64,000 nucleotides of DNA from Mesorhizobium sp. (GCF_004020545.1 NZ_SAQE01000006.1), one strand, 5' to 3'; shown: positions 8,095 through 37,200, numbered from the stretch's first letter. Made by a program: numbers and translations. The notes: generated from the letters alone by a model not told the origin.

Positions 8095-8198
8095 GGCAAT
8101 CGAATGGGCCGAATCGCCGCGTTGATCAACCCTGCCGATCTGCCCTATATCCGCATATAGGTCCGACGGGGGCCGCCCATCACCCATGGAAGCCTGGC

Positions 8199-9410
8199 GT
8201 GGAGCAGAACGACAAAGCCCGCATATTGGTTGCCGGCAGCGGCCAGGCCGGCCTGATCGCAGCACTCGGCTTTGCCGAGGCAGGCTTTGCCGTGACGCTG
8301 GCAGGCCCCGACGTCACCAGCAGCGACGCCCGCACCACCGCCCTCATGAACCCTTCGCTGAAGGTCCTCGACCGGCTGGGCGTGCTTGCCGAACTCACGC
8401 CGCAGGCGGCGCCGCTCAAGGTGATGCGCATCGTCGACGCGACGCGCCGGCTGATCCGCAGCCCGACGGTGACCTTTCGCGCCAGCGAGATCGGCGAGGA
8501 GCAGTTCGGGCTCAATTTGCCGAACAATATCCTGATCTCGGTGCTCGCCAAGGCGGTTGCCGCTCATCTGGGCATCGAGTGGCGAAAGTCGATGGTGGAG
8601 ACATGGCGGCTCGACGCCGACCAGGCCCATGCGAGCCTCGCCGATGGCAGTGAGGTCTCCGCATCGCTGGCAGTCGCCGCCGACGGGCGCCTGTCGCCGG
8701 CACGGGAGGCCGCCGGTATAAAAGCCTCCGCGCGGCCCTACCCTCAGTCAGCGCTCGTCCTCAATTTCAGCCATCGCAGCGAACACGGCTTCATCTCTAC
8801 CGAATTCCACACCGAGACCGGACCGTTCACGCAGGTGCCGCTGCCGGGCAAGCGCTCCAGCCTCGTCTGGGTGGTGAAGCCGGAGACGGCGAAGGAACTC
8901 GCAGCACTCGACGATGCCGCGCTGTCCATCCGCGTCGAGCAGCAGATGCAGTCGATGCTCGGCCGGGTCTCGGTCGAGCCCGGCCGCCAGGTCTATCCGC
9001 TGTCGGCAGCCTCGCCCGGCCGCTTCGCGCAAAACCGCGTGGCGCTGGTCGGCGAAGCCGCGCACGTTTTCCCGCCGATCGGCGCGCAAGGTCTCAACCT
9101 CGGCATCAGAGATATCGAAGATCTGATTGGAATCGCCGGCGAAAACCGCGACGATCCAGGGTCGAGGCTGTGCCTCGCCGCCTATGACACAAGACGTCGT
9201 CCCGACATCCTGGCGCGCAGCAGTGCGGTGAACCTGCTCAACATGTCGCTGCTGTCCGGCATGCTGCCGGCCCAGCTTGCGCGCAGCGCCGGCCTCAACG
9301 TGCTGGGCAGCTTCGCGCCGTTGCGCGCCTTCTTCATGCGCGAAGGCTTGCGGCCCGGCAGCGGCTTTCGCGCACTGGCCGGCGACCTGCGGAAACAGGC
9401 CGTGCGTTAG
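8199..9410 (+). CDS. UbiH/UbiF/VisC/COQ6-family FAD-dependent hydroxylase
   Basis: 403 aa with a GTG start. It has an N-terminal Rossmann motif ILVAGSGQAGLIAALGFA and the late motif GEAAHVFPPIGAQGLNLGIRD typical of this monooxygenase family. Confidence 0.85.
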   Translation: MEQNDKARILVAGSGQAGLIAALGFAEAGFAVTLAGPDVTSSDARTTALMNPSLKVLDRLGVLAELTPQAAPLKVMRIVDATRRLIRSPTVTFRASEIGEEQFGLNLPNNILISVLAKAVAAHLGIEWRKSMVETWRLDADQAHASLADGSEVSASLAVAADGRLSPAREAAGIKASARPYPQSALVLNFSHRSEHGFISTEFHTETGPFTQVPLPGKRSSLVWVVKPETAKELAALDDAALSIRVEQQMQSMLGRVSVEPGRQVYPLSAASPGRFAQNRVALVGEAAHVFPPIGAQGLNLGIRDIEDLIGIAGENRDDPGSRLCLAAYDTRRRPDILARSSAVNLLNMSLLSGMLPAQLARSAGLNVLGSFAPLRAFFMREGLRPGSGFRALAGDLRKQAVR

Positions 9411-22013: not shown

Positions 22014-22088
22014 GGGCGATTAGCTCAGCGGGAGAGCACACCCTTCACACGGGTGGGGTCGCAGGTTCAATCCCTGCATCGCCCACCA
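22014..22088 (+). tRNA. tRNA-Val (anticodon CAC), CCA encoded
   Basis: Manual cloverleaf: acceptor GGGCGAT/ATCGCCC, D-arm GCTC-AGCGGGA-GAGC, anticodon arm CACCC-TTCACAC-GGGTG, variable loop GGGTC, T-arm GCAGG-TTCAATC-CCTGC, discriminator A, then CCA. Confidence 0.92.
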
Positions 22089-22467: not shown

Positions 22468-23994
22468 CTAAGCCAAATCCACTTCGACCCACAGCCCACC
22501 GGGACCACGGGCACGATCGCGCGGCGCACTGCGCACCGCCAGGATCGAGCCTGAGGGCGAAGCGAAAGCTGGCTTTCCATTGGCATTCGCCAGCCAGGCA
22601 TCGTCGGCCCGAATGACGCGGCCCTTGGTCTTCGCTTCGAGCGCGGTCAGGATCGCGCCATAGGGCATCTCGCCCCAATGGATCTTCAACGCATCCAGCT
22701 TGTTGGTGGGAACGAAAGCCGAGAGGTCCGGGCTCGTTATCAGGTCGAGTCCCTGTTTTTCCGGCGTGGCGTTCTGGCTGCCGTGATGCGCGACCTTCAG
22801 ATAGACGGTGCGCGCCAGAAGGTCGGCGGTGGTGACGGTCGCCGCTCCCACCTGGAACTTCAGATCCTTCCAGCTCAGCCAGTTGCCGATCTGGGCGTCG
22901 CCCGGGAACAGGAAGACGCGGCCGGTGTCGATGAATTCGAAGGCGAGCACCAGGCTGGTGTTGTTGACGCCGCGATCGAGCTGCAGCGCGAGGTCGGCGG
23001 CAATTGCCATCCAGTCGGCGTCGATGCGGCGCCAGGACTGGTCGCGATCCTCCATGGGTGCTGCGCCCGAAACCGACCCGGAATAGTGCTTGCTGGTAAA
23101 GGCGCCGATATCGACGGCCGGATCGCTGCCCTTGTCGCCGTTCAGCGCCGCGGAGAGCGGCGTGCCGATGTTGCGTTCGAAGGGACTGAGTTCGTCGATA
23201 TAGGTCGCATCGTCGGCCTGATTCATCTTCAGCCCGGATGCGAGCGCCCGTGCAAACGGCCCGCCGCTGGCGAGCGGAAACATCTCGCTCGCCTTTTCCT
23301 CCAGTCGGAGAGCTGCCTTGTCGCGCGGCGGACCGAGCACATAAATCCGAAGATTGGGCAGTTCCGCGATGGATTGCGGCGCCCCGCCGGGCTCGAAATA
23401 GGTGGGCGATGGTTTTGCGGACAACTTTGCCGCGGCATTGCGCGCCGAACGCACCCGTTCCCCGGCCGCGCCGAACTGGAAGCCGAGCACGGCCTGCAGG
23501 CCGTCGCGGACGCTCGCCATGTAAGGGTTGAGCCCCTGCATGCCGTCAAGCTTCTGGCCCGCGCCCTGCAGCGCGGCGAGCGCCTGGCCCTTGAACTTGT
23601 CGAGCTCCACGGCTTCGGCATCGGCGGGGTTTTCGGTCCAAGCCATCCAGACATCGCCGACTGCAAAATCCTTGAACAGGTCCTTCGCGGTCAGGAATCC
23701 CGAGACGTGGTCCCAGTGCTCATGCGTGACGACGAGCACATCGATCCTGCCGCCCGTCTCCTTTTTAAGGTCGGCGACGATGTCGGCAACGAGCGCCGGA
23801 CCGCCTGTGATCGATACGTGGATGCCGCAATCGATCAGCATGCGGAACAGCGAGCCATCCGGCTTCGTGAAGGTGAGCAGGTGGCAGTCGCCGATGCCTT
23901 GGCAATAGTGCCGGACGGTGACGGCCGACGCGTGCGTCGTCGCGGAAGCCGTGGTGTCAACGGGCCTTCTCTTTGCCGCGGGCCTTCTAGACAT
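22468..23994 (-). CDS. MBL-fold metallo-hydrolase, ComEC/Rec2-like subtype with a large internal insertion
   Basis: 508 aa from ATG 23994 (MSRRPAAKRRPVDTT...). It has the HxHxDH motif VVTHEHWDHVSGF, a late FPGDAQ and VAHHGSQN. The start lies inside the last codons of the upstream protease gene (CATGTCTAG, 8-nt overlap). Confidence 0.8.
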   Translation of the reverse strand: MSRRPAAKRRPVDTTASATTHASAVTVRHYCQGIGDCHLLTFTKPDGSLFRMLIDCGIHVSITGGPALVADIVADLKKETGGRIDVLVVTHEHWDHVSGFLTAKDLFKDFAVGDVWMAWTENPADAEAVELDKFKGQALAALQGAGQKLDGMQGLNPYMASVRDGLQAVLGFQFGAAGERVRSARNAAAKLSAKPSPTYFEPGGAPQSIAELPNLRIYVLGPPRDKAALRLEEKASEMFPLASGGPFARALASGLKMNQADDATYIDELSPFERNIGTPLSAALNGDKGSDPAVDIGAFTSKHYSGSVSGAAPMEDRDQSWRRIDADWMAIAADLALQLDRGVNNTSLVLAFEFIDTGRVFLFPGDAQIGNWLSWKDLKFQVGAATVTTADLLARTVYLKVAHHGSQNATPEKQGLDLITSPDLSAFVPTNKLDALKIHWGEMPYGAILTALEAKTKGRVIRADDAWLANANGKPAFASPSGSILAVRSAPRDRARGPGGLWVEVDLA

Positions 23995-26900
23995 GGTCGT
24001 CGTCTCCGTCGCTGGCATGCAGCAGGGCGAAGGGTTCCGACACCTCGCCGCCGAAATAGAGCGCTCTGAGCGGCGACAGATAGTTTGCCGCCATCGTCCC
24101 GGCCTGCCGCTTCTGCCGGTCCGCGCTGCCGGTGTTCTTGATGATCGAGTAGCGGATCTCCTCAAAGCCTTCGCGCGGGTCGATGATGATGGTCGCGCCG
24201 CCGCGGAACCAGAAGAAGCCGTCGCCCTTGTTCACGCCCTGCGGCGCAGCCGTGCCGTCGAAGGCGACGGGTATCCGCTGCTGGATAACGGCGACCACCT
24301 CGACGCGGAACGAACCGTCCGGCTCGACCCGCCGCGTTGGCCGCACGCTGTAGATGTCGAAAGTCGTCTCGCCCTTCTTCGGCGCGTGCATGACCGTGCC
24401 GTCCTCGTTGTAGCGCGGCAGGTCGGGCAGCAGGCCGAACTGCTTGTAGAGGTCCGGGTTGGACGCGAAGGCCTTGTGCATCGCCTTCCACAGCGCGTAG
24501 CGGTTCTTGTCATTGAGGGCGAAGATCTCGGCACGCTTCAGCTTCTGGTTCCAGCCGAGGTCGATCTTGCTCAGCAACCCGTTCAGCCAGGGTGGGGAAG
24601 GGTCTTCCGGCGCGCTCCAGGCGAGCGTCTCTTCCGAAATGGTGCGCACGTCGCGCGGCAAAAGCTTCCACTTGCGGAAGGATTCCAGGAACGCCAGGCG
24701 ATAATGGAGCGGATCGTCCGGATAGGCATCGCGGTCCGCAGTGATCAGCGCGCGCAGATACTCGCCGAAGGTGATGTCGACGGCCGGGCAATAATCGAGC
24801 GCGCGGATGCACATGGTGAGCATCTGCCCGGCGGTCTTGGCAACCTCGTCGGTAAGGCGCTCGACGAGGCTCGGATGCAAGGTGCCGGCCGGCAGGATAC
24901 CGGTACCGCCGGTGGCAAGCTGGATCAGATCGTCGGTGCGGCGGTCGGCGATGGCGATGAACGCCTGATAGACCGCGAAGACGAGGATCGAGCCGCGGTC
25001 ATGCGCCTCGAAGGTCTTGTCGTAGTCGAGGTCGGCCATGCCCGAGCCGCCATATTCGCGCAGTGGTCCGGCCCGGCCGCTGCCTTCACCGAACTGCTTG
25101 GCGATGCCGGAAAGCAGCGACGCCACCGACACATCGCCCCTCGCCTTGCCGATCTCGAAATTCACCAGCTCCTTCAGGGTAAAATGCTGGAACAGCGCAA
25201 CGATGTCGGCAAACGCCTCATGGAAGGCCGGAACGTCCGGATTGGACGCTTCATGGAAGCGGCGATGCAGCCCGTCGAGCAGCGCATGCGACATCTCATG
25301 CGCGATGATGTCGCTGGACAGGCAGGAAAACACCGTGGTCCCGGGTGTGGTGACGTCGCCCTCATTGCTGGTTGCCGGGAAATAGCCGAACAGCAGCGCC
25401 TTCTTTTCCGGGCTGTAGTAGGCGTTCTCGGCGCGCAGCGCGTGTGGATAGATGCGCAGGCGCGGCACATAATGGGCCTTCACCGTCATGTCGCCGCTGC
25501 GGCCGGGGGCTTGCGAATAGTGCGGCGCCCACAGCGCCCGCCGCCCAAGAGCGCGTTCGAAATGGCCGATCGTTGTCATGGCGACCGCGTAGACCATCTG
25601 CTGGTGAAACTTCGGATTGCCTTCCGAAGGCGACAGGCCGTCCTGGGCCAGGAGCACCTTGTCGTTGAGGTCGACAGGATCGTAGACGCGGTCGGAGGCC
25701 GGATCGACATCGACCACCTCGAGATATTCGCCGATCGGGCCTCCCAACAGTGGCTTGTCGGCCGATGGCTCGTCGTCCCAGGGAACCGAGAGCGTCGCCT
25801 GGTGGACCGACACCGAGTCCAATCGCTTGGCGACCGAAGGGTCGAGCGCGTAGATGCGCAGGCGCCGCTGCGGCGGCGGCAGCGGACGCGGCCGGCGCTT
25901 GATCGGCGCCGGGCCTGCAGCGGTAACGGCGACCGGCAGCGGCTTGGCGCCAGCCCTGCCCAGCAACCCTTCGAGAAAGGCCTTGAGCGGCTTCGACGGA
26001 TTGCCTTCGTCGAGAGCGGCCTCGAAATAGCGATTGCGCGCGGCGGCCGAGATCGCGGCCGGATCGCCATCCGGGTCGGCGATCGCCTGGTCGACGGAAG
26101 CGGTGGTTTGCGCCATCTGCATAAGCTCAAGCGCAAACATCCTTTGCCTTTGGACGGCGGCCGGTGGCTGTGCCGCCAGAGAATTGCCGCCGGTGAGCAG
26201 ATCCAGCCAGCTCCATGTGTAGGTGGCCAGCGGCAGTTTCCGGAGCTGGTTCTCAGCCGGTGGGGAGATCGCCAGCGCATCGAAGGCGCGAACTACCCCC
26301 TGCCCGATCTTCTCCAGCGTCTCGGCGGTGTTCATCTTCGGCGTGGATTTCTGCGCCACCTTGAACAGCGCGAAGCGGACGGCCTCGATGCGCATCCATG
26401 GCTGCGGATAAGTCTTCACGCGATCCCAGTGCTCGGCCAGCCAAAGCGCCGCGGCTGCCGCGATCTGCGGCGTCGCCGCCGACGTGCCGTTGCCATCCAT
26501 GTCGACGACCTTGGCGCAGTCGATCTCCGCCCAGGGCACGTTCGGCGTGTAGGCGCCGAGCGCCGACTTCATCTTCGATGGCGGCCCATAGTTGCCCTGC
26601 ATGGTGCCGAAGGCGAGCCCGGCATAGGCGCGGCCGTCGCCCATCACGCCGCATGCCGCCAGCACACGGTTGTAGCGCGCCGGATAAACGATGCTGCGCG
26701 GCGTGATGGCAAAGTTGTTGCCGGCCGCAGTGACCATGACCAGGCCGTGGTCGTAAGCGAGATTGACGGCATCGACCAGCGCTTGCGAGGCGAGGCCGCC
26801 CATGCTCATCGACAGCACCTGGGCGCCTTGCTGGCGCGCATACTCGATGCCTTGCACCATCGTGCCCGTCGTCAGCCGCACCACCCAGTCGGCGATGCGC

Positions 26901-27658
26901 ACCGGAAGGATCTTGGCCCGCGGGGCGCCGCCGACGAAGTCTGTGAAGCCCGGCCAATTTGGCGAGGTGCCGTCGAGCTTGTTGCCGGCAAGCAGGCTGA
27001 GCGTGCCGGTGCCGTGACCGCGATTGCTGGTGAGCGTGCCGGCAGGCGCATGATCGGTCGCGTTGTCCGGTCCGGTGCCGTCATCGACGAAATTGCGCTG
27101 CTTTGCCGCCAGAAGCCCGGCCGGCAATGTGCGATGTCCCGGATCGAAGCCGGTATCGAGATGAGCGATGGTGATGTTGGCCTGCTTGGCGCCGACCCTG
27201 GTGCGGGCGGCCACGAATTGGCTGAAATTCGGCCCGGCGTTCCAAGCGATACCGTCCCGGACGACCGCTTGTCCGCCGCTAGGATCCTGATCGTCGAAGG
27301 TGCAGGCAGGGCTGGCGCTCGCCGCCATGCCGCGATCGCCGTTGCCGTTCTTGTACTCCCATCGCTGTTCGATATCGGGCTCGACTGCCAGGACATCTGC
27401 GCCCGCCGCCGCGAAATCTCCGCCGCGGGCTGCAAGCTTGTGGGCATCGTCCCAGGGATTGTCCGAGCCTGCCGCCTTGGCGGAAACCCGCAGCCAGGTC
27501 GCGCCACGGTCCCCCGCTGCCCCGTAGTCAGCGCCGGACGCACCCGGCGGCAGGGTCAGGATCGGTTCGGCATCGACGCTCTCTATCCCAAGCGACCGGC
27601 CTCGCGCTGCAAGCCCGGTGCCATCACCGCGAACCTTGATCAGGAGTCCCCTCGCCAT
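23987..27658 (-). CDS. Fusion protein: subtilisin-like S8 serine protease + thermolysin-like (HExxH...ExxxD) zinc metalloprotease + unassigned C-terminal region
   Basis: 1223 aa from ATG 27658 (SD GGGGAGGGG). S8 motifs: AHLDTGF (Asp), NRGHGTGTLS (His), TAAGNN (oxyanion Asn), GNGTSAATPQIAAAAAL (Ser). A linker PIKRRPRPLPPPQRR follows, then IIAHEMSHALLDG and AFHEAFADIVALF. There is no hydrophobic N-terminal signal peptide. The 1300-aa opposite-strand ORF is an Arg/Ala-rich shadow. Confidence 0.85.
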   Translation of the reverse strand: MARGLLIKVRGDGTGLAARGRSLGIESVDAEPILTLPPGASGADYGAAGDRGATWLRVSAKAAGSDNPWDDAHKLAARGGDFAAAGADVLAVEPDIEQRWEYKNGNGDRGMAASASPACTFDDQDPSGGQAVVRDGIAWNAGPNFSQFVAARTRVGAKQANITIAHLDTGFDPGHRTLPAGLLAAKQRNFVDDGTGPDNATDHAPAGTLTSNRGHGTGTLSLLAGNKLDGTSPNWPGFTDFVGGAPRAKILPVRIADWVVRLTTGTMVQGIEYARQQGAQVLSMSMGGLASQALVDAVNLAYDHGLVMVTAAGNNFAITPRSIVYPARYNRVLAACGVMGDGRAYAGLAFGTMQGNYGPPSKMKSALGAYTPNVPWAEIDCAKVVDMDGNGTSAATPQIAAAAALWLAEHWDRVKTYPQPWMRIEAVRFALFKVAQKSTPKMNTAETLEKIGQGVVRAFDALAISPPAENQLRKLPLATYTWSWLDLLTGGNSLAAQPPAAVQRQRMFALELMQMAQTTASVDQAIADPDGDPAAISAAARNRYFEAALDEGNPSKPLKAFLEGLLGRAGAKPLPVAVTAAGPAPIKRRPRPLPPPQRRLRIYALDPSVAKRLDSVSVHQATLSVPWDDEPSADKPLLGGPIGEYLEVVDVDPASDRVYDPVDLNDKVLLAQDGLSPSEGNPKFHQQMVYAVAMTTIGHFERALGRRALWAPHYSQAPGRSGDMTVKAHYVPRLRIYPHALRAENAYYSPEKKALLFGYFPATSNEGDVTTPGTTVFSCLSSDIIAHEMSHALLDGLHRRFHEASNPDVPAFHEAFADIVALFQHFTLKELVNFEIGKARGDVSVASLLSGIAKQFGEGSGRAGPLREYGGSGMADLDYDKTFEAHDRGSILVFAVYQAFIAIADRRTDDLIQLATGGTGILPAGTLHPSLVERLTDEVAKTAGQMLTMCIRALDYCPAVDITFGEYLRALITADRDAYPDDPLHYRLAFLESFRKWKLLPRDVRTISEETLAWSAPEDPSPPWLNGLLSKIDLGWNQKLKRAEIFALNDKNRYALWKAMHKAFASNPDLYKQFGLLPDLPRYNEDGTVMHAPKKGETTFDIYSVRPTRRVEPDGSFRVEVVAVIQQRIPVAFDGTAAPQGVNKGDGFFWFRGGATIIIDPREGFEEIRYSIIKNTGSADRQKRQAGTMAANYLSPLRALYFGGEVSEPFALLHASDGDDDHV

Positions 27659-27846
27659 GGCGCACCCCTCCCCGGAAATGGAATCATGGCGTCGGCCGTC
27701 GTCTCCAGTCAAGCCAAGTTTCAAGCCATGATTCGATCGGTCTATTTGCCACCAGGAAATCAAGCCGATTGTGTTTCGGCACGATATGCTTGGCGTCCGA
27801 AACATACATTCGGAAAATGACGATCGCGCCGAGTGACAGAGGCTTC

Positions 27847-27862
27847 TGTGATCGCCTTCACA
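27847..27862. promoter_or_regulatory. Perfect CRP-type box TGTGA-N6-TCACA in the divergent protease / crp-like intergenic region
   Basis: TGTGATCGCCTTCACA read directly from the sequence. Its centre is ~197 nt upstream of the protease ATG (27658) and ~340-395 nt upstream of the regulator start candidates. Confidence 0.65.
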
Positions 27863-28248
27863 TACGTCGGGCGAGCTTCACGCACAAATATTGCACCGGG
27901 TGGCACTGGCTTCTGCTTCGATGCACAGGTCCGACAAGGCTTCCGGCCTGAAAATGGGCCGTTCCTCGGCAAGGAATTTCGATCACCTAGCCATTTTCAG
28001 ATTTGCTGTCTGCGCGCGTAGGCACCTCCCACCGACGCGCGCGGACGGCGTTTCGAAGATCGATCGCGCTCCGCCAGGCGTGTCAGTCAATCAATTGCGG
28101 GGTCACCTGTTTTTCGAAGCAGGTTGGCGTCCGGGACTGCTGCCAGAGGCATGTCGCCCGGCGACTGGCGACCATGAACGGAGACGAAGCTATGATCGAG
28201 CATGCACTTGTCCTACAATTTCCCCTCAACGAGAGGCGGAATCGCATC

Positions 28249-28935
28249 ATGGCCACAGCCGGCATAGACGACAGGAGCGCCGTGCCGCGCCTGGCGCGGA
28301 TCGACCCGCGCCAGTTCGAGCTGCTGTTCGGCGGCTGCAAGGTCGAACGCTACGCCGCCGGTCAGCACCTGTTCGTTCAGGAGGATGCGTCCGACCGCAT
28401 CTATGGCGTGATGAGCGGCACCGTCGAAATCTCGCTCTATTCGCCGGGCGGACAGAAGCTGGTGGCCAATATCGAGCTCTCGCGCAGCCTTGTCGGCGAG
28501 ATCGGCGCCCTGGACGGACGCCCGCGCACGGCCACCGCCATCTGTCACACCGCTTGCGAGCTGGTTTCACTCAGCCGAACACAACTCTTTGATCGCATTG
28601 AAAAAAATCCGTCGCTGGCGCGTGCCATGATCGAACTGCTATGCGCGCGGCTGCGCTGGGTCAGCGGCGAACTAGGCGACCAGGCTTTCTTCGGCATCGA
28701 GGCCCGACTGGCGAAGCGGCTGGTGTTCCTCAGCGGTGTCATGGCAGACCCTGCCGGCTGGGTTCCGATCTCGCAGTCGGAGCTTGGCGAGTTCCTCGGC
28801 GCGACGCGCGAATCGGTCAACAAGACGCTCAACGACTGGCGCAACCGGCACATGATCGCCATCAAGCGCGGAGGGCTGCGCATCACCAACGCCGCCGCGC
28901 TGAACCAGATCGCCGAATCGCAGGACGACGACTGA
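28249..28935 (+). CDS. Crp/Fnr-family cNMP-binding transcriptional regulator
   Basis: cNMP-binding fold (YAAGQHLFVQEDASDRIYGVMSGTVEISLYSPGGQKLV...GEIGALDGRPRTATAI) plus a C-terminal HTH ISQSELGEFLGATRESVNKTLNDW with a CRP-like R-E pair. In-frame alternative starts exist at 28174 and 28192 (GGAG before 28192). Confidence 0.85.
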   Translation: MATAGIDDRSAVPRLARIDPRQFELLFGGCKVERYAAGQHLFVQEDASDRIYGVMSGTVEISLYSPGGQKLVANIELSRSLVGEIGALDGRPRTATAICHTACELVSLSRTQLFDRIEKNPSLARAMIELLCARLRWVSGELGDQAFFGIEARLAKRLVFLSGVMADPAGWVPISQSELGEFLGATRESVNKTLNDWRNRHMIAIKRGGLRITNAAALNQIAESQDDD

Positions 28936-28953
28936 GCGAGCCGGCCCCCCGAA

Positions 28954-31900
28954 TCAGAGCCGCGAAATCAGGTATCGCAGCGCGGACCGGCTCGGCATGA
29001 AGAAGTAGCCGCCGCCCTTCGTGGTGACGAATTGCGGCACGTCCTTGAGCATGGTGACCTTTTCCCATGATGGGATCGAGAACCGGCCGCCACCGTCACG
29101 CGCACCGATCGTCGGATCCTTTTCCGCGACCAGGCCCTGGAACGAGCTCGAGGAAACCCAGGTCTGCTGGATGAACTCGTACTGACGCTCGATGTCGGCG
29201 TTGAGGCACATGAAGAGCAGCCCCTTCTCGACCTTCCCGCTCCGGTCCTGCTTTTCATAGGTGCGGCCGACGCGCAGGATGCGGTGGCGCTTGCCGATCC
29301 TGATCTGCGTCTCGCGGTCCTCGCCAAGCGAATCGCGCGGATTGGAGCGGCGTATGTGCGAGCCGAGCGGGCAGCGATGCCCTTGCGGGTCTTCCACACC
29401 AAGCGCGAAATCATTGTCGGTGCCGCGGCCCGGGCGGCCGTCGGGGTTGCGCACCAGCGAACTGCCGTCCTGCCAGCGCCCCAGCATCTTGGCCGCCACC
29501 CAGCGCGGCGTGACGGCATCGTCGCCAGTCTCGCGCGCAGCCAGCGCGGCGGCATGCTTGCAGTAGTCGTTGAACAACTCGACATGCTGCTCGAACTGGC
29601 GCACGACGAGGAAGGAACCGTTGCGGCCGAAGTCGCGTGGCGGCGGAGGCTGACCGGGAATCTGCCGGTTCCGCCGCACCTGCGACAGGATGCCTATCCG
29701 ATCCTGCGCCGCCTGGACGGAGGGCGAGGCCGGATAAAACCCGTGCTCGTCGCGATAGCCGAACAGGAATTCGCCGGGCGCGACCAGATGCATCGGTGCG
29801 GCCCCCTTGTTGGCGCGCGACGTGCCCCTGACGATCGGTTGCGAGACACCGTCGGCGAAGCCGAAATGCTCATAGGCGCGCTGGCGCTCGGGCTTGCCGT
29901 TGTTGCCGATATGCTGGGATTTCACGCCCTCCTTCTTGGGCTCGCGGTTCACGACAAGCGGCAACTCGGCGACGATCTTCATCCCGGCGCCTGCCGTCTT
30001 TCGCTTCGCGGCGGTGACCTCGGCCTTGAGCGCGGCCGGCTCCTTGGCGTAGCAGATGACAACCGCGTCGACCGGCGTCTTGGCCGAGCCCCATTGCCAT
30101 TTGTCGGGCGCGTCCGGCCCTTGGTCGTCGAGGATGCGGCTGCGCTCAGGATTTCCCATGCCGTGACGAAAAGCGACCGGAAACGTGTCCAACGGATCAT
30201 CGTCGACGCCGCCCTCCAGCCCGAGCCGACGAAGGCCGTCGGGGCCGAAGGCGACTGTCATGGCCCGTCCGGCGGGCACGCCGTCGCCGAAGCTGGTTTT
30301 ATCGATGACGAAGTCCAGCCATGCCTTGCGTTGCATTGCCGGCAGATCCTCGGGCACCCGGATTGCCAGCATATGCCCGTAACCGAGCGCGCCGAAAGGA
30401 CCGAAGAAGATCGATTGGATCTCGCCGGCTTCCAGTTCTTCGAGAGGCGAAGGGGCCGGCTCGCGGCCGACGGTTTCCGCCGGCCTCGCCTGCGGCCGCT
30501 GCAACGAGCCGAACAGGCTCACCCAGTCGCGCGCCTCGTTGCCGATGGCCGAAGCCATGCCGCGCCTTATCCTGGAGTTGATGCGGATGCGGGTGGTGTT
30601 GAGATGCGGATAGGCGGAATACCAGAAGAGCGTCGGCACCTGCTGGCGCCGCGCCCAGCGCTTGAAGCGGTCGCCGTCGCGCGCGCCGTCGAGGAAGAGC
30701 CAGCGCGTGCGCGGATAACCTTCCGTGTTGCTCCACACCCCGGTCAGGCCTTCGGAGGCCTTGGCTATGAAGTCCTCCAGATAGCTTTCCCAGCTACCGC
30801 CGTAGTTGGAGAAGAACATGAGCTTGCCGGTACCCGGCAGCAGCACCCAACGCGCGAAGTGGATGGTGTTGATGGTGGCAAGGAAGCCCGGCTTGAACAC
30901 CTTCTGCGCCGATATCGAGATCAGGTAGAAGGTGAGCCTCAGCGCCAGCCGCCGCAAGGTGCCCGCCTTCATCGTCGAGATCGCGGTGAGATGGTTCTGC
31001 GCGCAGTGGTCCTCATTGGCGAGGATCTTGTCCAGGGCGCCTATGTCGACCGGCGTGCTCTGCGGCCGGTCCTTGTCCTCGAGGCGCCGCAGGCCGAGGA
31101 AGCACAAGCCGACGAACAGCAGGGCTATCGCCAGCAGCCCCAGAAGGGCCAGCAGAAGTGCGGTGCCGGCAATCGCGATGTTGGTGAAGGTGATGCCGTG
31201 GGGGTTTCCGAACACAAGCAAATAGGTCATGCGCCAGCAGGCAAGTACGACGATCGCGACGGTGACGAGCACTGCCGGCGCGAGCAACGTCGTGGTCAAG
31301 GCCCGCCACCAGCGGCCCGGCGGCCGCTCCAGCAGGCTTTCGGCCGGCTCGAAGGCCCAGCCGAATTGTCCCAGCGCCTGGGCATGGCGACGTGCCTCGG
31401 TAAGGACCGCAAGGGCGTTGCCGGTACCGGCGCGCGGCTTTTCGACGATCTCGCGCACACTGTCGGCAAGCCTGGCCTCGGCCAGGATGCGGCGCACCGA
31501 ATGGCCGGGCGTGCCCGAAAAAACCAGCCCCGCCGTGCTGCCGAAGGACGGCGATATTTCGATATGATGTTTCTTCAGGAAATCCTCCAGCGAGCCGCCG
31601 TCGGACAGGCCGCAAACATCCCTGAAAATCGGCCTCAGCCGGTGGCCTATGGCCTGCGTGATGGCGCCGATGACATCGTTGGTGCTGCCGTCGCCGGAGA
31701 TTTCGAACACGAGCGCCCCCGTGTCGAGGCCCGATCTCTCGTCCTTCCCGGTGGCGGCGACGGCCAGGCTGGTGAAATGTATCGATCCGACCTTGTCGAG
31801 CGCACCGCCCACCTCGTCGATCGCCGGATTGCCGAGGGCGCCGACCTTGTCGCGGACGGCGTCCAACGGCACGGCGCAGGTGATCGGGCAAACCACGGTG

Positions 31901-33234
31901 ACCATTGATTGGTCGACCGTGCGGCAAAGCGGTGAGCGCTCGAAATCGACCTTGAGGTTCGCTGGATAAGCGCCGACATAGGCCAATTTGCCGGCCCTGC
32001 CCCGGACGCGATTGAGCTTTGGCTTGCTGAACAGGGCGCGAACGCATTCGCCGATCTGTATCCGGGCGATCTCCGCACCGATGCACAAGTGAATGCCGTG
32101 GCCGAAAACCATGTAATCGCGGTGTGGCCGCGAGGTATCGAATTCTTTTGGCCGTTGCACGATTTCCGGATCGAACATCGCCGACAGCGTTGCCGGCATC
32201 ACGACCGTTCCCGCCTTGACCAGATGCTCGCGGCGCGTGCCCTGGCCGATGATCGCGTCACGCCTGGTGTAACGCCAGGGCCCGATCCAGATCGGCTTGA
32301 AGCGCATGGCTTCGAGTATCGCCCTGTCGAGCTTGTCGATGCTGTCCTCGGCAAGCGCCGCATCGACGGCCTGCCGCGCATCGGTGCGCGACAGGATCAC
32401 GTCCAGGCAATTGCCCCCGGCAAGCACGTTGGTCGGCACGAAGCCGGCGATCATGCCGAGCATGATGGAGTGGATATCGGGCAGCGACAGACGCTTCTGA
32501 TCGAGCTGGGCGACAAGCCGCGCCAGCGGCCGGTCGTCTTTCTCCTGCCTGTTTCTGATCGCGGCGATCGAACGATCGATGACCTTGATCAGGCGATCTC
32601 CGCCGACGACCGCGAGTTGGCGCGTGGTGGCGTCGGCAAACGGATCGGAGAAGAACAGCGCGCTGAGCGCGATCGACCAGTCGGCGAATTCGGTCTCGTC
32701 GTCGATCTCGAGGCCGAAATAGTCCCGGCAGATGCGCACCGGGACGATCTTCATCAGCCCGGCGACAGCATCGAAGCCCGGGGCGGCGCGGGTCATGATA
32801 TCGCGCGAATGGCGCTCGGCGATCGGCCTGACGGTGGTTTCGACCTGCGACGGCGGAAAGGCGCTGAGCACGGCGGACTTCATCTGCCGATACGCGGCGC
32901 CGTCCTGCATGCCGAGAATGAAGTTCGATCCCCTCGCCAGCTCGGTCATTTCCGGCCCGTATGGCGTCTCGAACTCGTCGCCGCGTTCCAATATGTCGCG
33001 GACGTCCACACCCTTGGTAACGAGGAGAAATCTGCTACCTATGGCGAGGTTCGGGTGGCAGCGCCGCAGCCAGGCCAGCCACCAATGAGGATGATCCTGC
33101 ACCAGGAACCTGGCTATGCGCGCCGACAGGCCCTTCTTGCGCAGCCGATCGATGTCGAAAGGCGGCATTGCCGACACGGGGCCTTGTTTTTTCTGGGCTT
33201 CCCAAATGCCTTTGAAATACTTCCAGTTGATCAT
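28954..33234 (-). CDS. Fusion hemoprotein: cytochrome P450 + two-TM hairpin + conserved unassigned domain + DyP-type peroxidase
   Basis: Uninterrupted 1426-aa ORF. P450: ExxR (LEAMRF) and Cys loop FGHGIHLCIGAEIA. TM helices: WWRALTTTLLAPAVLVTVAIVVLACW and IAIAGTALLLALLGLLAIALLFVGLCFLGL. Mid motif: TIHFARWVLLPG...FFSNYGGSWESYLEDFI. DyP: EHFGFADGVSQP, GSHIRRSNPRD, RILRVGRTY, LLFMCLNADIERQYEFIQQTW. Confidence 0.88.
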   Translation of the reverse strand: MINWKYFKGIWEAQKKQGPVSAMPPFDIDRLRKKGLSARIARFLVQDHPHWWLAWLRRCHPNLAIGSRFLLVTKGVDVRDILERGDEFETPYGPEMTELARGSNFILGMQDGAAYRQMKSAVLSAFPPSQVETTVRPIAERHSRDIMTRAAPGFDAVAGLMKIVPVRICRDYFGLEIDDETEFADWSIALSALFFSDPFADATTRQLAVVGGDRLIKVIDRSIAAIRNRQEKDDRPLARLVAQLDQKRLSLPDIHSIMLGMIAGFVPTNVLAGGNCLDVILSRTDARQAVDAALAEDSIDKLDRAILEAMRFKPIWIGPWRYTRRDAIIGQGTRREHLVKAGTVVMPATLSAMFDPEIVQRPKEFDTSRPHRDYMVFGHGIHLCIGAEIARIQIGECVRALFSKPKLNRVRGRAGKLAYVGAYPANLKVDFERSPLCRTVDQSMVTVVCPITCAVPLDAVRDKVGALGNPAIDEVGGALDKVGSIHFTSLAVAATGKDERSGLDTGALVFEISGDGSTNDVIGAITQAIGHRLRPIFRDVCGLSDGGSLEDFLKKHHIEISPSFGSTAGLVFSGTPGHSVRRILAEARLADSVREIVEKPRAGTGNALAVLTEARRHAQALGQFGWAFEPAESLLERPPGRWWRALTTTLLAPAVLVTVAIVVLACWRMTYLLVFGNPHGITFTNIAIAGTALLLALLGLLAIALLFVGLCFLGLRRLEDKDRPQSTPVDIGALDKILANEDHCAQNHLTAISTMKAGTLRRLALRLTFYLISISAQKVFKPGFLATINTIHFARWVLLPGTGKLMFFSNYGGSWESYLEDFIAKASEGLTGVWSNTEGYPRTRWLFLDGARDGDRFKRWARRQQVPTLFWYSAYPHLNTTRIRINSRIRRGMASAIGNEARDWVSLFGSLQRPQARPAETVGREPAPSPLEELEAGEIQSIFFGPFGALGYGHMLAIRVPEDLPAMQRKAWLDFVIDKTSFGDGVPAGRAMTVAFGPDGLRRLGLEGGVDDDPLDTFPVAFRHGMGNPERSRILDDQGPDAPDKWQWGSAKTPVDAVVICYAKEPAALKAEVTAAKRKTAGAGMKIVAELPLVVNREPKKEGVKSQHIGNNGKPERQRAYEHFGFADGVSQPIVRGTSRANKGAAPMHLVAPGEFLFGYRDEHGFYPASPSVQAAQDRIGILSQVRRNRQIPGQPPPPRDFGRNGSFLVVRQFEQHVELFNDYCKHAAALAARETGDDAVTPRWVAAKMLGRWQDGSSLVRNPDGRPGRGTDNDFALGVEDPQGHRCPLGSHIRRSNPRDSLGEDRETQIRIGKRHRILRVGRTYEKQDRSGKVEKGLLFMCLNADIERQYEFIQQTWVSSSSFQGLVAEKDPTIGARDGGGRFSIPSWEKVTMLKDVPQFVTTKGGGYFFMPSRSALRYLISRL

Positions 33235-33313
33235 GCGCGTTCGGCCCCCCGGCTGTCCACGTCACTGCGATGCCGGCCGTCTCTTTGGCCTAGGTTTGGT
33301 TCGGTCCGGCGTA

Positions 33314-33329
33314 TGTGAATTCCGTCACA
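33314..33329. promoter_or_regulatory. Perfect CRP-type box TGTGA-N6-TCACA upstream of the P450-DyP gene
   Basis: TGTGAATTCCGTCACA read directly, in the 119-nt gap between the cyclase stop (33354) and the P450-DyP ATG (33234). Its centre is ~88 nt upstream of the ATG. Confidence 0.7.
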
Positions 33330-33353
33330 GTCCTTTGTCTTCGGCGATGGTGA

Positions 33354-35135
33354 TCATGCAATGGACTTGGCTTGGTCGAAATTGGCGATCAGGAAGTTGT
33401 TTTTTGCCGCGTCTACGAACGGTATCCAGCGAATTCTCTGCTCGGAAAAGTCGGGATGTCTGGTCGCGAAAATGGCAAGTTCCCGCTTGGCCTCGTCGCG
33501 GCGGCCGCTTCGCATCAAGGCGCCGATCTTGAGAAACCTGGCGTAGAAATAGCCCGGCGAAAGGTTGAGCGAGCGATCGGCAATTGCAATTGCCGCGGGC
33601 CAGTCCTCGACGAAGCAGTATGCGGCGGCCAGTTCCCCAAGATTGTGGAAGCGGTAGAGGTCGAACGGGCTGAGCCGCTCAGTATCCAGGAAGAACGGGA
33701 TCGCGCCTGCGGCATCGCCGAGCAGCAGGCGCGCGCTGCCCATTGCCGAGCGGGCGAAAGCAAAGCTCGGATTGATGTGGATCGCTTCGGCCAGATGCTC
33801 GGCGGCCGACGCCGGCTGGCCGCGCATGATGTCGGCCGCGCCAAGATAAGCGTGCGGGCGCGCGTCGAGGCTGTCCATCAGAAGCGCTTTGCGCGCCAGC
33901 GCCTCGACCTTGTCCAGGTCGTCGCTGTCGCCGAAGCGCAGCCAGGCCCGCCAAAAATACCACCATGCCAGTTCGTTCAGCACGGCGCTGGAATTCGGAT
34001 CCTCCTGGTAGGCCTTGTCGAAGAATTCGAGTGCGATTTCCGTGTCGCTTCGCGTGCGCCTGTTCATGTGCCAGCGGCCGCGCCGCACCAATTGCCAGGT
34101 CTCGAGACTCTCCCATGGCACCTGGAAGGTCCGCACCTGCTCGGCCCGGTCGACTTCCTTGTCGAGGATCGAGACGATCTCGGAGCCGATCTGGTCGCGC
34201 AGGCTGAAGATATCGACGAGGTCGCGGTCGAAGCGCTGTGACCAGACGAGGCGCCCGTTCGACGTATCGGTGAGCGAGGCATTGAGGCGTATCTGCCCGT
34301 TGTGGCGCGCCAGCGTGCCGCTGACGATGTAGCGCGCGCCGAGCGCATTGCCGATGAGCCTGGTCCCGAGGCTGTCGTCGCGGAACTGGAAGCTTGAGCC
34401 CTTGGCGATCACCGAAAGCCAACGGGTATTGGAGAGGCCATAAATGATATCCTCGGCGATACCATCGGCCATGTATTCGACATCGGGCTCGCTTCCGTCG
34501 CCCTGGAACGGCAGCACCGCGATTGCCGGCGGTCCCTTGGCAGCGGGTTTGTAGTGACCGGGCGCTGTGGGGATGGCGGCCAAGGGAGCCGCCATCGCGG
34601 CACCGTTGCCATCGCGCCCGGCTATCAGGACGCGCACCGGCAACGCGATGTTCTTCAGCATGAACTCGCCGAGATCGGTGAAATTCGCTGCCGTCTTGTC
34701 CTTGACGTGATGCCAGGTCGTCTCGGAAATGGCGAGGCCGTCATGCGGGGCGAACTCCTGGAGCCGGGCGGCAATGTTGACGTCGTCGCCATAGAGGCGG
34801 CCTTCGCGGACGATGACGTCGCCTGTGTTGATCCCGGCCCGGAACGGCATGCGCATCTCTTCGGCGACCGAGGCATTGAGTGCCATGATCCGATCCTGGA
34901 AATCGAAGGCCGCGCGCAAGGCTTCGATCGGATTGCCGAATTCGGCCATGATGCTGTCGCCGGCGACGCCAAAGGTGCGGCCGCCAAAGGCGCCGCAGCT
35001 GTCGGTGATGATATCGCGCCTTTCCTCGAAGGCCGCGACGGCAAGTTCGTCATCGATTCCCATCAGCCGTGAAAAGCCCACGGCGTCGATAGAAATGATG
35101 GTCGCGAGCTGACGGGTATAGTTCCGTTCAGCCAT
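33354..35135 (-). CDS. Class III adenylate/guanylate cyclase with C-terminal TPR region
   Basis: 593 aa from ATG 35135: MAERNYTRQLATIISIDAVGFSRLMGIDDE...FGVAGDSIMAEFG...GINTGDVIV...YGDDVNIAARL (CYCc motifs), followed by a long helical-repeat/TPR-like C-terminal half. Confidence 0.85.
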   Translation of the reverse strand: MAERNYTRQLATIISIDAVGFSRLMGIDDELAVAAFEERRDIITDSCGAFGGRTFGVAGDSIMAEFGNPIEALRAAFDFQDRIMALNASVAEEMRMPFRAGINTGDVIVREGRLYGDDVNIAARLQEFAPHDGLAISETTWHHVKDKTAANFTDLGEFMLKNIALPVRVLIAGRDGNGAAMAAPLAAIPTAPGHYKPAAKGPPAIAVLPFQGDGSEPDVEYMADGIAEDIIYGLSNTRWLSVIAKGSSFQFRDDSLGTRLIGNALGARYIVSGTLARHNGQIRLNASLTDTSNGRLVWSQRFDRDLVDIFSLRDQIGSEIVSILDKEVDRAEQVRTFQVPWESLETWQLVRRGRWHMNRRTRSDTEIALEFFDKAYQEDPNSSAVLNELAWWYFWRAWLRFGDSDDLDKVEALARKALLMDSLDARPHAYLGAADIMRGQPASAAEHLAEAIHINPSFAFARSAMGSARLLLGDAAGAIPFFLDTERLSPFDLYRFHNLGELAAAYCFVEDWPAAIAIADRSLNLSPGYFYARFLKIGALMRSGRRDEAKRELAIFATRHPDFSEQRIRWIPFVDAAKNNFLIANFDQAKSIA

Positions 35136-35247
35136 GGTTGAGCCCCCGGTCCCTGCTTTCGGTCCAGAACAGGCGACTTCCGCTGGAAAAAGCACTTCGC
35201 CGTTTGCCGACAAAACAATCCCCGGCAGGCTCGGCGCGCCGTTGCCA

Positions 35248-35274
35248 CCCTGTTAGGCCGGAAGTCTAACAGGG
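35248..35274. promoter_or_regulatory. Perfect 9-bp inverted repeat upstream of the cyclase gene (operator candidate)
   Basis: CCCTGTTAG-gccggaagt-CTAACAGGG, ~115-140 nt upstream of ATG 35135, with no adjacent U-tract on either strand. Confidence 0.4.
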
Positions 35275-35547
35275 TCTGGCCAAAAGCTCTACCACGAACA
35301 GCTAATGGAATGCGTCTGCGGCCCGACCCATGGTTAGCCCTTTGTTACCTGAAGCACCAGGTAGCAGAAACTTCCTTACATATTGAAATCCCGAGACTTT
35401 GGCTTTTTCAGGAGCTTGCAAACGAACCATGGAAGCGCTCTTGCCAGCCAGTCCGTGGAGCAGGCATTATCCGACCGTGGCGGAACCAACCCGGCTGGGA
35501 TGCGAATTTTTCAGCGCACTCATGCCAACACGAGATTGAGGGCAGTC

Positions 35548-35805
35548 ATGCGCGCTGTTGTTTTGGCAAGCAGTATTGCGTTTTTCCTTATCGGCGAGCC
35601 GGCTTTCGCGGCGGAGGAGCAAGCGGTGCCGCCGCAAAATTCCAAGAAACTCTCGGAAATCGTCGCCAAGGTCGAGAAGCGGAGCGACTTTCGCTACGTG
35701 AAGGGGGTCGACTGGAGTAGCGACGGATATACCGTCACCTACTACACGACCGACAAGGCCAAGGTCGAAATCACCTATGATCCGGTGACCGGGGAGCCGA
35801 AATAG
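35548..35805 (+). CDS. PepSY-like small periplasmic protein
   Basis: 85 aa from ATG 35548 (SD GAGGG): signal peptide MRAVVLASSIAFFLIGEPAFAAEE, then LSEIVAKVEKRSDFRYVKGVDWSSDGYTVTYYTTDKAKVEITYDPVTGEPK (PepSY pattern). Confidence 0.65.
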   Translation: MRAVVLASSIAFFLIGEPAFAAEEQAVPPQNSKKLSEIVAKVEKRSDFRYVKGVDWSSDGYTVTYYTTDKAKVEITYDPVTGEPK

Positions 35806-35896
35806 GCGCGTCCGGGCTCCTTCCGGTTTCAGCCATTCCGCATGGCATGTTGTCCGCATAGATTGACGCGCGAAGCCGACAAGGCAGGAGGAGAAT

Positions 35897-36625
35897 ATGC
35901 GCTTCCCCATCCAAGCGATCGCTTGGCTCGTGCCTGCATTGGTGCTGGGCATATCGCTGCCGGCGCGGGCGGATGGACCGTCCTTCGACTGCCGGAAGGC
36001 TCAATTGCCGGCTGAAAAGACAATATGCGCGGACGCGCAGATGTCGGCGATCGATGTGCTGGTCGCCAAGGCCCTTAGAGGCTTCGAGCCCGCCTTCGGC
36101 GGCGACAAGCGCAAGATCGCCAGACAATTGGCTGCGGACCGGAATGCCTGCAAGGCGGACGCCGCCTGCATCGTCAGCGCCCAGAACAACGCGCTGCAGA
36201 CTTATGGCTCGGCGCCCTCCTGGGTTGAGGAGTACAATATCGCCTTGATCGGCAAGAAGGCGCTTGATCTGGCGGCACGAACACCCAGGCCGGTGGACCA
36301 GCCCCTTCCCTCTTCGATCGGGAGATGCGGCTTCACCCATATCAAGACGCTGACGGCAAGGCTGGGCGACGACCCGCTGGCAACCGCCAGCCCGGAAGCC
36401 GGGAGCGCTGCGACGTTCACCAATGGCGGAGCCGCGGTTTCCTATGACCGTGAGCCGGGGCTGGCGGGTTCAAAAGTCGGCGATCCAGTCGTCATGTGCC
36501 TGATCTCGATCCCGCGCGATTGTCCGCAAGGCGATTTGCGCGGCAGGGTCTATTACGGCGTAGATCTCGCCGGCAAAGGCACATGGTCCCTGCCAGACTC
36601 GCAGCACCTGTGCGGTGGCGCCTGA
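35897..36625 (+). CDS. Hypothetical secreted protein with LprI/DUF1311-like N-terminal motif
   Basis: 242 aa, SD AGGAGGAG, signal peptide MRFPIQAIAWLVPALVLGISLPARADG, then FDCRKAQLPAEKTICADAQMSAIDVLVAKAL. Confidence 0.6.
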   Translation: MRFPIQAIAWLVPALVLGISLPARADGPSFDCRKAQLPAEKTICADAQMSAIDVLVAKALRGFEPAFGGDKRKIARQLAADRNACKADAACIVSAQNNALQTYGSAPSWVEEYNIALIGKKALDLAARTPRPVDQPLPSSIGRCGFTHIKTLTARLGDDPLATASPEAGSAATFTNGGAAVSYDREPGLAGSKVGDPVVMCLISIPRDCPQGDLRGRVYYGVDLAGKGTWSLPDSQHLCGGA

Positions 36626-36702
36626 AGACGGCCACCCGCGGGTAAGCCACCCCGCCCATCCGAGACTTGCGTCGACGCGTGATTAATGGCTGACTGCCCG
36701 CC

Positions 36703-37200
36703 ATGATTGCGGGCACGGGGTGCATGGCAACGATCGGCTACGTCCTGAAGCGTATCCTTATGGTGCTTGCCGGTTATCTGGTGGCGGTGCTCGTCGGATT
36801 GATCGCGTTGGTCGTGATCTACGCTGTATTGAGCGCGCTCCTCAACGCGCCCGCCTATTTCGACCTGATGGGTGTGACGCCGATCATGGCGCTCGTGGTG
36901 CCGCCTGTCGGCATGTTCGTCTATTTCCTGACGGTCGTGGTCACCGGCATGCAGACCCTGGTCTTTGCCTTGATTGCCGAGTTGTTTTCGCTGCGGAGCT
37001 TCTGGCTGCACATGCTGTTCGGCGCCGCCGCGGCGGCTGCCGGCTTCGTGCTGCTCTGGCCAGACGCGCCGGACGATCCGGAACGCTGGGCCGACATGAG
37101 CATCATCGCCGGCGCTGGTCTCGTCGCCGGCCTGGTCTATTGGCTGATCGCCGGGCGCGACGCCGGCTTCCGGCGCCCTCTTATCGAGCGTTCAGGTTGA
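36703..37200 (+). CDS. Hypothetical integral membrane protein
   Basis: 165 aa with about 4 hydrophobic helices (ILMVLAGYLVAVLVGLIALVVIYAVL...). No recognisable family. Its 3' end overlaps the convergent L,D-transpeptidase gene by 9 nt. Confidence 0.5.
   Translation: MIAGTGCMATIGYVLKRILMVLAGYLVAVLVGLIALVVIYAVLSALLNAPAYFDLMGVTPIMALVVPPVGMFVYFLTVVVTGMQTLVFALIAELFSLRSFWLHMLFGAAAAAAGFVLLWPDAPDDPERWADMSIIAGAGLVAGLVYWLIAGRDAGFRRPLIERSG

Follow-up and report, generated by a model that had tools for sequence, protein, structure and literature searches.

Two alphaproteobacterial systems are described in which a nucleotide cyclase, a CRP-type receptor and a target of that receptor are encoded in one place, with feedback. 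In one of them, RC1_3785-gcyB-gcyC-cgrA of Rhodospirillum centenum (cGMP-CgrA), the closest match to the locus reported here, the gene for a CRP homologue lies beside cyclase genes, as in ours, and a perfect TGTGA-N6-TCACA palindrome, TGTGAAGCAGTTCACA, stands in front of the operon and provides positive feedback (PMC4681086). The second closest is cyaD1-clr-smc02177/smc02178 of the rhizobium Sinorhizobium meliloti, where a cyclase and a CRP-like regulator likewise stand beside a target gene; that gene has an uncharacterised function and is activated through a palindromic box (PMC5498481). Both precedents are activated by cGMP, CgrA preferentially (PMC10187061) and Clr as well as by cAMP (PMC10127613). 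Here we describe a locus in 64 kb of DNA from Mesorhizobium sp. (GCF_004020545.1 NZ_SAQE01000006.1; the whole stretch of 64,000 nucleotides is called the window), in which a class III cyclase with tetratricopeptide repeats (cyclase-TPR), a fusion of a P450 with a DyP-type peroxidase (P450-DyP) and a convergent CRP-type regulator probably form a three-gene second-messenger cassette, with one CRP-type palindrome (box 1) between the cyclase and P450-DyP genes and a second (box 2) upstream of the regulator.

In its gene and box layout the locus agrees with the local cyclase/CRP/neighbour-target cassettes of the CgrA and Clr type. Judged by this comparison, the regulatory logic is already known and it is the parts that differ, which in the window are a soluble TPR cyclase, a regulator with an RE...K recognition helix and a predicted two-haem P450-DyP membrane output. 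CgrA and the window regulator have the E...RT nucleotide signature in common (PMC10187061), but CgrA acts through a large regulon to control cyst development, GcyB and GcyC are both required as subunits of its cyclase, and the R. centenum locus has neither a P450-DyP target nor a TPR cyclase. The S. meliloti cyclases are CHASE2 receptor types, and the targets there are periplasmic TPR/FecR-type proteins, not a haem enzyme. Clr is without an equivalent of E181 and reads GTNNCNNNNGNNAC, or TGTT-N8-AACA (PMC10127613), whereas the window regulator keeps R-E...K and is accompanied by TGTGA-N6-TCACA. Assignment of the window regulator to the Clr subtype (cluster G, GTNNCNNNNGNNAC box) was rejected on these grounds, E188 being kept. 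The features of the proposed cassette are as follows.

33354-35135, minus strand: class III nucleotide cyclase of 593 aa (Pfam Guanylate_cyc and TPR families).
33314-33329, no strand: box 1, perfect CRP-type palindrome TGTGAATTCCGTCACA (pattern scan).
33287-33292, minus strand: TAGGCC, -10-like hexamer of the predicted P450-DyP promoter (alignment of loci).
28954-33234, minus strand: P450-DyP fusion of 1426 aa, the conserved putative target gene (Pfam and NCBIfam).
28249-28935, plus strand: CRP-family cyclic nucleotide (cNMP)-binding regulator, 228 aa as called (Pfam cNMP_binding, HTH_Crp_2 and Crp).
27977-28049, plus strand: conserved leader block TTTCGATCACCTAGCCATTTTCAGATTTGC, then a 13-bp GC-rich hairpin at 28005-28049 (alignments and consensus fold).
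27885-27891, plus strand: CAAATAT, -10-like, on the regulator side of box 2 and 23-25 bp from it (alignment; promoter function predicted).
27847-27862, no strand: box 2, perfect palindrome TGTGATCGCCTTCACA (pattern scan).

An earlier note on this DNA had found by eye only two perfect TGTGA-N6-TCACA palindromes in the 64 kb, and placed one in the gap between the cyclase and P450-DyP genes and the other between a protease gene and the regulator gene. Both statements proved correct. Exactly two sites match without mismatch, at 27847-27862 and 33314-33329, against a mean of 0.03 expected for the window from dinucleotide-preserving shuffles, none of 100 of which reached two. The window holds no site with one mismatch; the 12 sites with two mismatches bring the total to 14, which is the chance level (14.6 expected), so the perfect pair alone stands above background. 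An FNR/FixK-type reading of the boxes was rejected, as the arms are GTGA/TCAC and not TTGA/TCAA and the helix is RE...K and not E..SR. Simple scans for sigma-70 promoters and terminators gave nothing useful at either box, which is to be expected if the promoters are activator-dependent and alphaproteobacterial.

The open reading frames that the note had read as a cyclase-TPR (33354-35135) and a cNMP-binding regulator (28249-28935) carry the corresponding Pfam domains, and gene calls on the window's own public contig agree with the reading frame coordinates. Elsewhere in the window there are no paralogues of the five proteins considered (MBL-fold protein, protease, regulator, P450-DyP and cyclase). 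A DNA search against plasmids gave no match for the 12.7-kb region, and the locus is therefore taken as chromosomal. Literature searches on the P450-DyP fusion, on cAMP-CRP in Mesorhizobium and on TPR cyclases with altered specificity found nothing relevant, and no publication on the cassette itself came to light in them.

For comparison, 80 species-level genomic loci with 10-kb flanks, 1.8 Mb in total, were fetched using an alignment of 21 P450-DyP homologues, and the five window proteins and all boxes were mapped onto them; statements on box distribution cover these loci and the 64-kb window. Outside the intergenic regions of the cassette the 1.8 Mb contain a single perfect site, where about 0.8 would be expected.

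The comparison strongly supports the trio of cyclase-TPR, P450-DyP fusion and CRP-type regulator, not a five-gene set, as the conserved unit. In all 79 informative loci the cyclase gene is directly upstream of P450-DyP, and the regulator gene lies downstream of P450-DyP in convergent orientation in 77 of 78. These loci span Mesorhizobium, Allomesorhizobium, Pseudaminobacter, Aquamicrobium, Nitratireductor and Borborobacter, with P450-DyP identities of 52-92%; in a Methylobacterium metagenome-assembled genome (MAG) and two metagenome contigs the same trio is set in unrelated flanks. About 27 of the 80 loci lack the other neighbours seen in the window, L,D-transpeptidase among them. The earlier note had supposed that all five genes, these three and a protease-MBL pair, are inherited together. 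Mapping their co-occurrence upholds this for the cyclase, the regulator and P450-DyP, retained across genera, and not for the protease-MBL pair, found in 30 of the 80 loci only.

Two departures from the arrangement were seen. In Borborobacter arsenicus the cyclase and P450-DyP genes (L063) still carry boxes while the regulator is on another contig (RKST01000008.1, L085), where the gene at 8001-8690 encodes an orthologue with 65% identity and a TRESVNK helix, immediately after fixNOQP-fixGHIS (cbb3 oxidase); since it is unlinked there, the regulator can presumably act in trans. In a JGI 3300045454 contig (L086, 8001-10649) the regulator adjoins the cyclase-TPR with no P450-DyP gene between them, and CRP-type boxes are absent from the whole 16.7 kb; its flanks match those of another locus, L087, which holds the full trio.

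Box 1 is situated in the 119-bp gap that separates the cyclase stop from the start of P450-DyP (33234). It lies 24 nt past that stop, and its centre falls 87.5 nt upstream of the ATG of P450-DyP. A box is found upstream of P450-DyP in 79 of 79 loci, 57-90 nt before the start (68 perfect and 11 with one mismatch), and the Methylobacterium MAG has a two-mismatch version at the equivalent place. In the alignment of loci the arms GTGA/TCAC are essentially invariant while the 6-nt spacer takes 34 distinct sequences; fixed arms around a free spacer are the signature of a site that is read by a dimeric protein.

The alignment further places a TA at positions 38-39 from the start of box 1 in 77 of 80 loci, so that the second base of a -10-like element is exactly 22 bp away from the box. 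In the window the hexamer is TAGGCC; distant relatives have TATAGC, TATGTC or TAGATC, and CTATAG is also read among distant loci. Class II CRP sites are centred near -41.5. A distance of 22 bp between a CRP site and the second -10 base is exclusive to class II promoters (PMC10187061), such as galP1 of E. coli, where CAP occupies a site over the -35 region (PMC10187061). Box 1 thus appears to have class II activation geometry, in which it would take the -35 position, and transcription of P450-DyP is predicted to start near 33280. No conserved -35 hexamer other than box 1 occurs at a workable spacing in the alignment, and the stretch from the cyclase stop to box 1 has no terminator call on that strand. 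The same class II spacing recurs on the protease side of box 2, a layout comparable with CRP sites shared between divergent promoters; at both places the starts in the window are predictions from sequence and the -10 elements are alphaproteobacterial and weak. The proposal that the P450-DyP promoter is a target is backed by box 1 as a phylogenetic footprint with apparent class II geometry.

Box 2 had been read as marking a target promoter of the protease-MBL pair, a reading that the comparison does not support. It lies 196 nt upstream of the protease start and approximately 390 nt upstream of the called regulator ATG, and is perfect in 52 sequences (the window and 51 loci), of which 31 have the protease and 21 do not. 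The flank on the regulator side (TCACATACG...GCGC.CAGATAT) is conserved with or without the protease, whereas the far-side flank is conserved only where the protease is present. The box can thus be assigned to the upstream region of the regulator, and most likely it is an autoregulatory site. The -10-like element on this side is most commonly CAGATAT, as in most relatives, or a one-base variant of it (CAGATGT, CAGATAC, CAAATAT or similar), in about 35 of the 52 sequences. In five loci of the M. qingshengii / M. loti DSM 2626 group (L026-L028, L036 and L064) box 1 is kept but the 700 nt upstream of the regulator are free of boxes. A one-mismatch site, TATGAAGAACTTCACA, is found there at a distance of about 1.1 kb, and this region may therefore have undergone an insertion or rearrangement. 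In distant genomes a perfect or one-mismatch box occurs upstream of the cyclase (L053, L057-L059, L061, L063, L073, L075, L077 and the Methylobacterium MAG). The recurring design would appear to be one box at the output gene and a second, with a feedback role, at a gene for signalling.

A strongly conserved leader element separates box 2 from the regulator gene. Its hairpin loop holds an invariant CCTCCC (28025-28030), anti-Shine-Dalgarno-like in sequence; the consensus fold has two compensatory pairs in the stem. It has no Rfam match, searches of 22-36 kb and of the leader itself having returned only the tRNA. The element could pair with the regulator's GGAGA (28180-28184), or it could be a small RNA driven from box 2. 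That GGAGA is a candidate Shine-Dalgarno sequence for an ATG at 28192, and relatives have a conserved AAGGAGA 7-8 nt before the corresponding upstream codon, which is TTG in most of them. The true start of the regulator is probably at 28192, 19 codons upstream of the called ATG, because this AAGGAGA and TTG/ATG arrangement is conserved there.

The regulator itself scores above the cut-offs for PF00027 (60 bits), PF13545 (53 bits) and PF00325 (24 bits). Its phosphate-ribose pocket, GEIGALDGRPRTATA (GE...RTA, aa 83-97), is conserved in 78 orthologues, as are the segments GEIGALDGRPRTA and TRESVNK; the motif E(X)nR(S/T) is invariant in all cNMP-binding CRPs that have been studied (PMC10187061). 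The recognition helix is RESVNK (aa 187-192, window 28807-28824), and the earlier note's observation that it has the Arg-Glu pair of CRP and not an FNR/FixK pattern holds across the orthologues, in which the helix is invariant. Since helix positions 1, 2 and 6 (R, E and R/K) are those that contact TGTGA (PMC10187061), the RE...K helix supports CRP-type and not FNR-type or Clr-type specificity (PMC10187061, PMC10127613). Binding of the regulator to TGTGA-N6-TCACA is suggested by this family knowledge and by the strict co-conservation of gene and site. The C-helix nucleobase pair is V-S (RWVSGE), with I-S, V-T or I-D in orthologues, and the pairs in studied CRPs are TS, TT, TN, LN or AD (PMC10187061).

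Among proteins of solved structure, the regulator matches C. glutamicum GlxR best (82 bits), followed by S. meliloti Clr (79), M. tuberculosis CRP (78) and E. coli CAP (67). GlxR and the M. tuberculosis protein, Rv3676, have the helix RETVNK against RESVNK in the window and share its RT pocket signature (PMC10187061), but they are global regulators with >200 targets, stand outside cyclase-target cassettes and have T-N in the C-helix in place of V-S.

In the cyclase a Guanylate_cyc domain at aa 11-161 is followed by a TolB-N/CadC-like middle region and, at aa ~360-560, by TPR repeats. The cyclase homology domain scores 28.0 bits with PF00211 (cut-off 21.9), and there are weak NCBIfam matches to TolB, CadC and mod_pep_cyc. 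Among solved structures 3mr7 is the best match (3e-25), followed by Rv1900c (2e-8) and Ma1120 (9e-6). The metal-binding Asp residues D17 and D60 and the transition-state residues N120 and R124 align with these three and are invariant in 77 cyclase sequences, and the protein is probably active as a nucleotide cyclase. The position of the adenine-specifying Lys is occupied by G56, invariant in the 77 orthologues, and that of its partner Asp by R113 in the window and by S, N, L or G in orthologues (the two stretches, aa 55-61 and 112-125, are encoded at 34953-34973 and 34761-34802). Such a specificity pair is unusual. As the Lys/Asp pair is missing, the names cAMP and adenylyl cyclase are not established for this system. 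The TPR half is the putative sensor.

In the P450-DyP fusion, the N-terminal P450 has the Cys ligand motif FGHGIHLCIG (aa 377) and the C-terminal DyP-type peroxidase has FADG (GXXDG-type, aa 1126) and the proximal-His motif HIRRSNPR (aa 1293). All three motifs are invariant across the 21-sequence alignment, and both haem domains look functional. Two membrane helices are predicted at aa ~640-720. A contig of 7.35 Mb from Mesorhizobium sp. M1E.F.Ca.ET.045.02.1.1 encodes a protein with 98% identity to it; in Phyllobacteriaceae and the Methylobacterium MAG there are homologues with identities as low as 51%, and a species-level genome collection yielded 496 tblastn-confirmed matches for the protein (~1400 aa). 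The family is widespread and appears uncharacterised. Neither the P450-DyP fusion nor the cyclase has a PADLOC match.

Upstream of the cyclase gene, at 35200-37200, there are genes for a PepSY_2 protein of 85 aa and for two conserved hypothetical proteins, of 242 and 165 aa, that have no Pfam match. The three are conserved only within Mesorhizobium and lie outside the trio.

On the other side of box 2 lie the protease-MBL pair and a tRNA gene.

27820-27825, minus strand: GATCGT, -10-like, on the protease side of box 2 and 22 bp from it (alignment; function predicted).
23987-27658, minus strand: S8 subtilase fusion, the protease (Pfam Peptidase_S8; the reading frame extends to 27805 and the public call starts at M50).
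22468-23994, minus strand: MBL-fold protein, partner of the protease (Pfam Lactamase_B).
22014-22088, plus strand: tRNA-Val(CAC), far boundary of the variable segment (Rfam search).

The pair is absent from 50 of the 80 loci, and where the protease is present the MBL gene co-occurs with it. It sits between box 2 and tRNA-Val(CAC), in a segment (22014-22088 to 27846) that carries other cargo or none in the remaining genomes; in loci without the protease the tRNA is 0.5-1.8 kb from box 2, and one locus (L020) retains only a 45-aa protease remnant. No tRNA-derived (att-like) direct repeats flank the islet in the window. The protease combines an S8 subtilase domain (aa ~210-520) with a C-terminal module of ~620 aa containing HExxH (HEMSH, 25286-25300). 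Many plasmids of Rhizobium, Agrobacterium, Hymenobacter and Deinococcus encode this C-terminal half (aa 602-1214) by itself. An anti-phage defence module was considered for the pair: to curated models of defence-system proteins the MBL protein has partial matches only (LmuA-like, 1.5e-12, aa 27-117, with Avs1a and 6A-MBL far below cut-offs), and the protease has no PADLOC match. Homologues of the pair are found on conjugative plasmids, as in Methylorubrum extorquens pCMU01, where the pair lies among SIR2, AAA-ATPase, exonuclease and insertion sequence (IS) genes; no cyclase gene, CRP gene or box is near the plasmid-borne pairs. Its presence in 30 of the 80 loci only, its place in a variable segment and its occurrence on conjugative plasmids mark the pair as accessory to the cassette and as a mobile, defence-island-like two-gene module. 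Of the 31 sequences that carry the protease, 30 have GA(T/C)(T/G)GT at positions 38-43 on that side of box 2 (CATCGT in the remaining one); the hexamer is confined to sequences with the islet, and it is plausible that the islet was secondarily captured by a pre-existing box 2.

We propose the following course of events. On input to its TolB-N-like/TPR half, the soluble class III cyclase would make a 3',5'-cyclic nucleotide, with cAMP as the default guess. This would bind to the adjacent CRP-family regulator, whose E...RT pocket is intact, and the R-E-x-x-x-K helix of the regulator would then read TGTGA-N6-TCACA. Bound at box 1, the regulator would replace a -35 element and activate the P450-DyP promoter in the class II manner, while box 2 would give feedback on the regulator itself, a role that the cyclase-upstream box may play in distant genera. 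In some strains the protease-MBL islet would have landed between box 2 and tRNA-Val, with a putative promoter that abuts box 2 at class II spacing.

Several observations count against this proposal. Each of its regulatory steps is deduced from sequence. The adjacency of the trio is not obligatory, as the unlinked regulator of B. arsenicus demonstrates. The cyclase lacks the ATP-specifying Lys/Asp pair, and the messenger could be cGMP or another nucleotide; the V-S pair in the regulator's C-helix, instead of T-S, is outside the characterised combinations. The -10-like elements are weak (TAGGCC, and CAAATAT at 23-25 bp). Lastly, about 300-350 nt including the hairpin separate box 2 from the regulator start, and box 2 might drive a leader or small RNA and not simply the regulator. 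It is also conceivable, though we consider it quite improbable, that the cyclase, with its invariant Gly and freely varying second specificity position, does not make cAMP but another nucleotide, either cGMP or a non-purine cNMP, for which the V-S-type regulator is the dedicated receptor, giving an insulated, self-contained switch in which the TPR half would sense a substrate or product of P450-DyP and close a loop from metabolite to messenger to enzyme.

Among other explanations, the larger unit of the earlier note, in which protease-MBL and P450-DyP are both integral, co-inherited outputs of a private cAMP-CRP circuit, draws on the position of box 2 beside the protease in the divergent region and on the -10-like hexamer 22 bp from it in 30 of 31 sequences, where the box may also serve a protease promoter. 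We regard it as unlikely, given that box 2 stays perfect when the pair is absent, that the pair occupies a variable segment bounded by tRNA-Val, and that on plasmids it keeps the company of SIR2, AAA-ATPase and exonuclease genes without cyclase, CRP or box. The boxes could instead be read by another, global CRP paralogue encoded elsewhere, which would make the cassette one node of a large cNMP regulon; the adjacent regulator would in that case serve other targets or be one among several redundant readers. Rhizobia have many cyclases (28 are quoted for S. meliloti; PMC5498481), the regulons of Clr and CgrA are large, and in B. arsenicus the boxes remain at the cyclase and P450-DyP genes although the regulator is unlinked. 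Against such a regulon stand the regulator's constant place next to the cassette in 77 of 78 informative loci although the flanks change, the box in the regulator's own upstream region, the loss of boxes together with P450-DyP in L086, and the want of further perfect sites in the window and, but for the single one outside the cassette gaps, in the 1.8 Mb of loci; we hold it to be quite unlikely.

A regulator that represses at box 1 by blocking RNA polymerase at -35, the nucleotide relieving or imposing the block, would also account for the overlap of box 1 with the -35 region, and GlxR, which among solved structures is closest to the regulator, acts as activator and as repressor (PMC10187061). 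Repression of this kind seems very unlikely when no conserved -35 hexamer exists besides box 1 and the fixed 22 bp to the -10 TA are a class II activation signature. That the palindromes are due to chance, or are small hairpins or terminator remnants without a regulatory role, is hardly credible: site 1 does lie directly past the cyclase stop, where a terminator could be expected, but 0.03 sites are expected by chance, a stable hairpin needs arms longer than 5 bp, the strand in question has no terminator-like call, and in >80 genomes the arms are invariant and the spacer variable, where hairpin arms would co-vary. The hairpin or terminator reading was rejected on this last ground.

Taken as a three-gene cassette, the locus would offer a regulatory handle on the widespread, uncharacterised P450-DyP family, and likewise an entry point to the cyclase-TPR architecture that is common in rhizobia. 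Its simple design, with one cyclase, one receptor, one output promoter that has a perfect site, and feedback, may make it a clean model for the specificity of cyclic-nucleotide pathways in bacteria that have dozens of cyclases. The protease-MBL case would illustrate, in addition, how a mobile islet may settle next to an activator site that is already in place.

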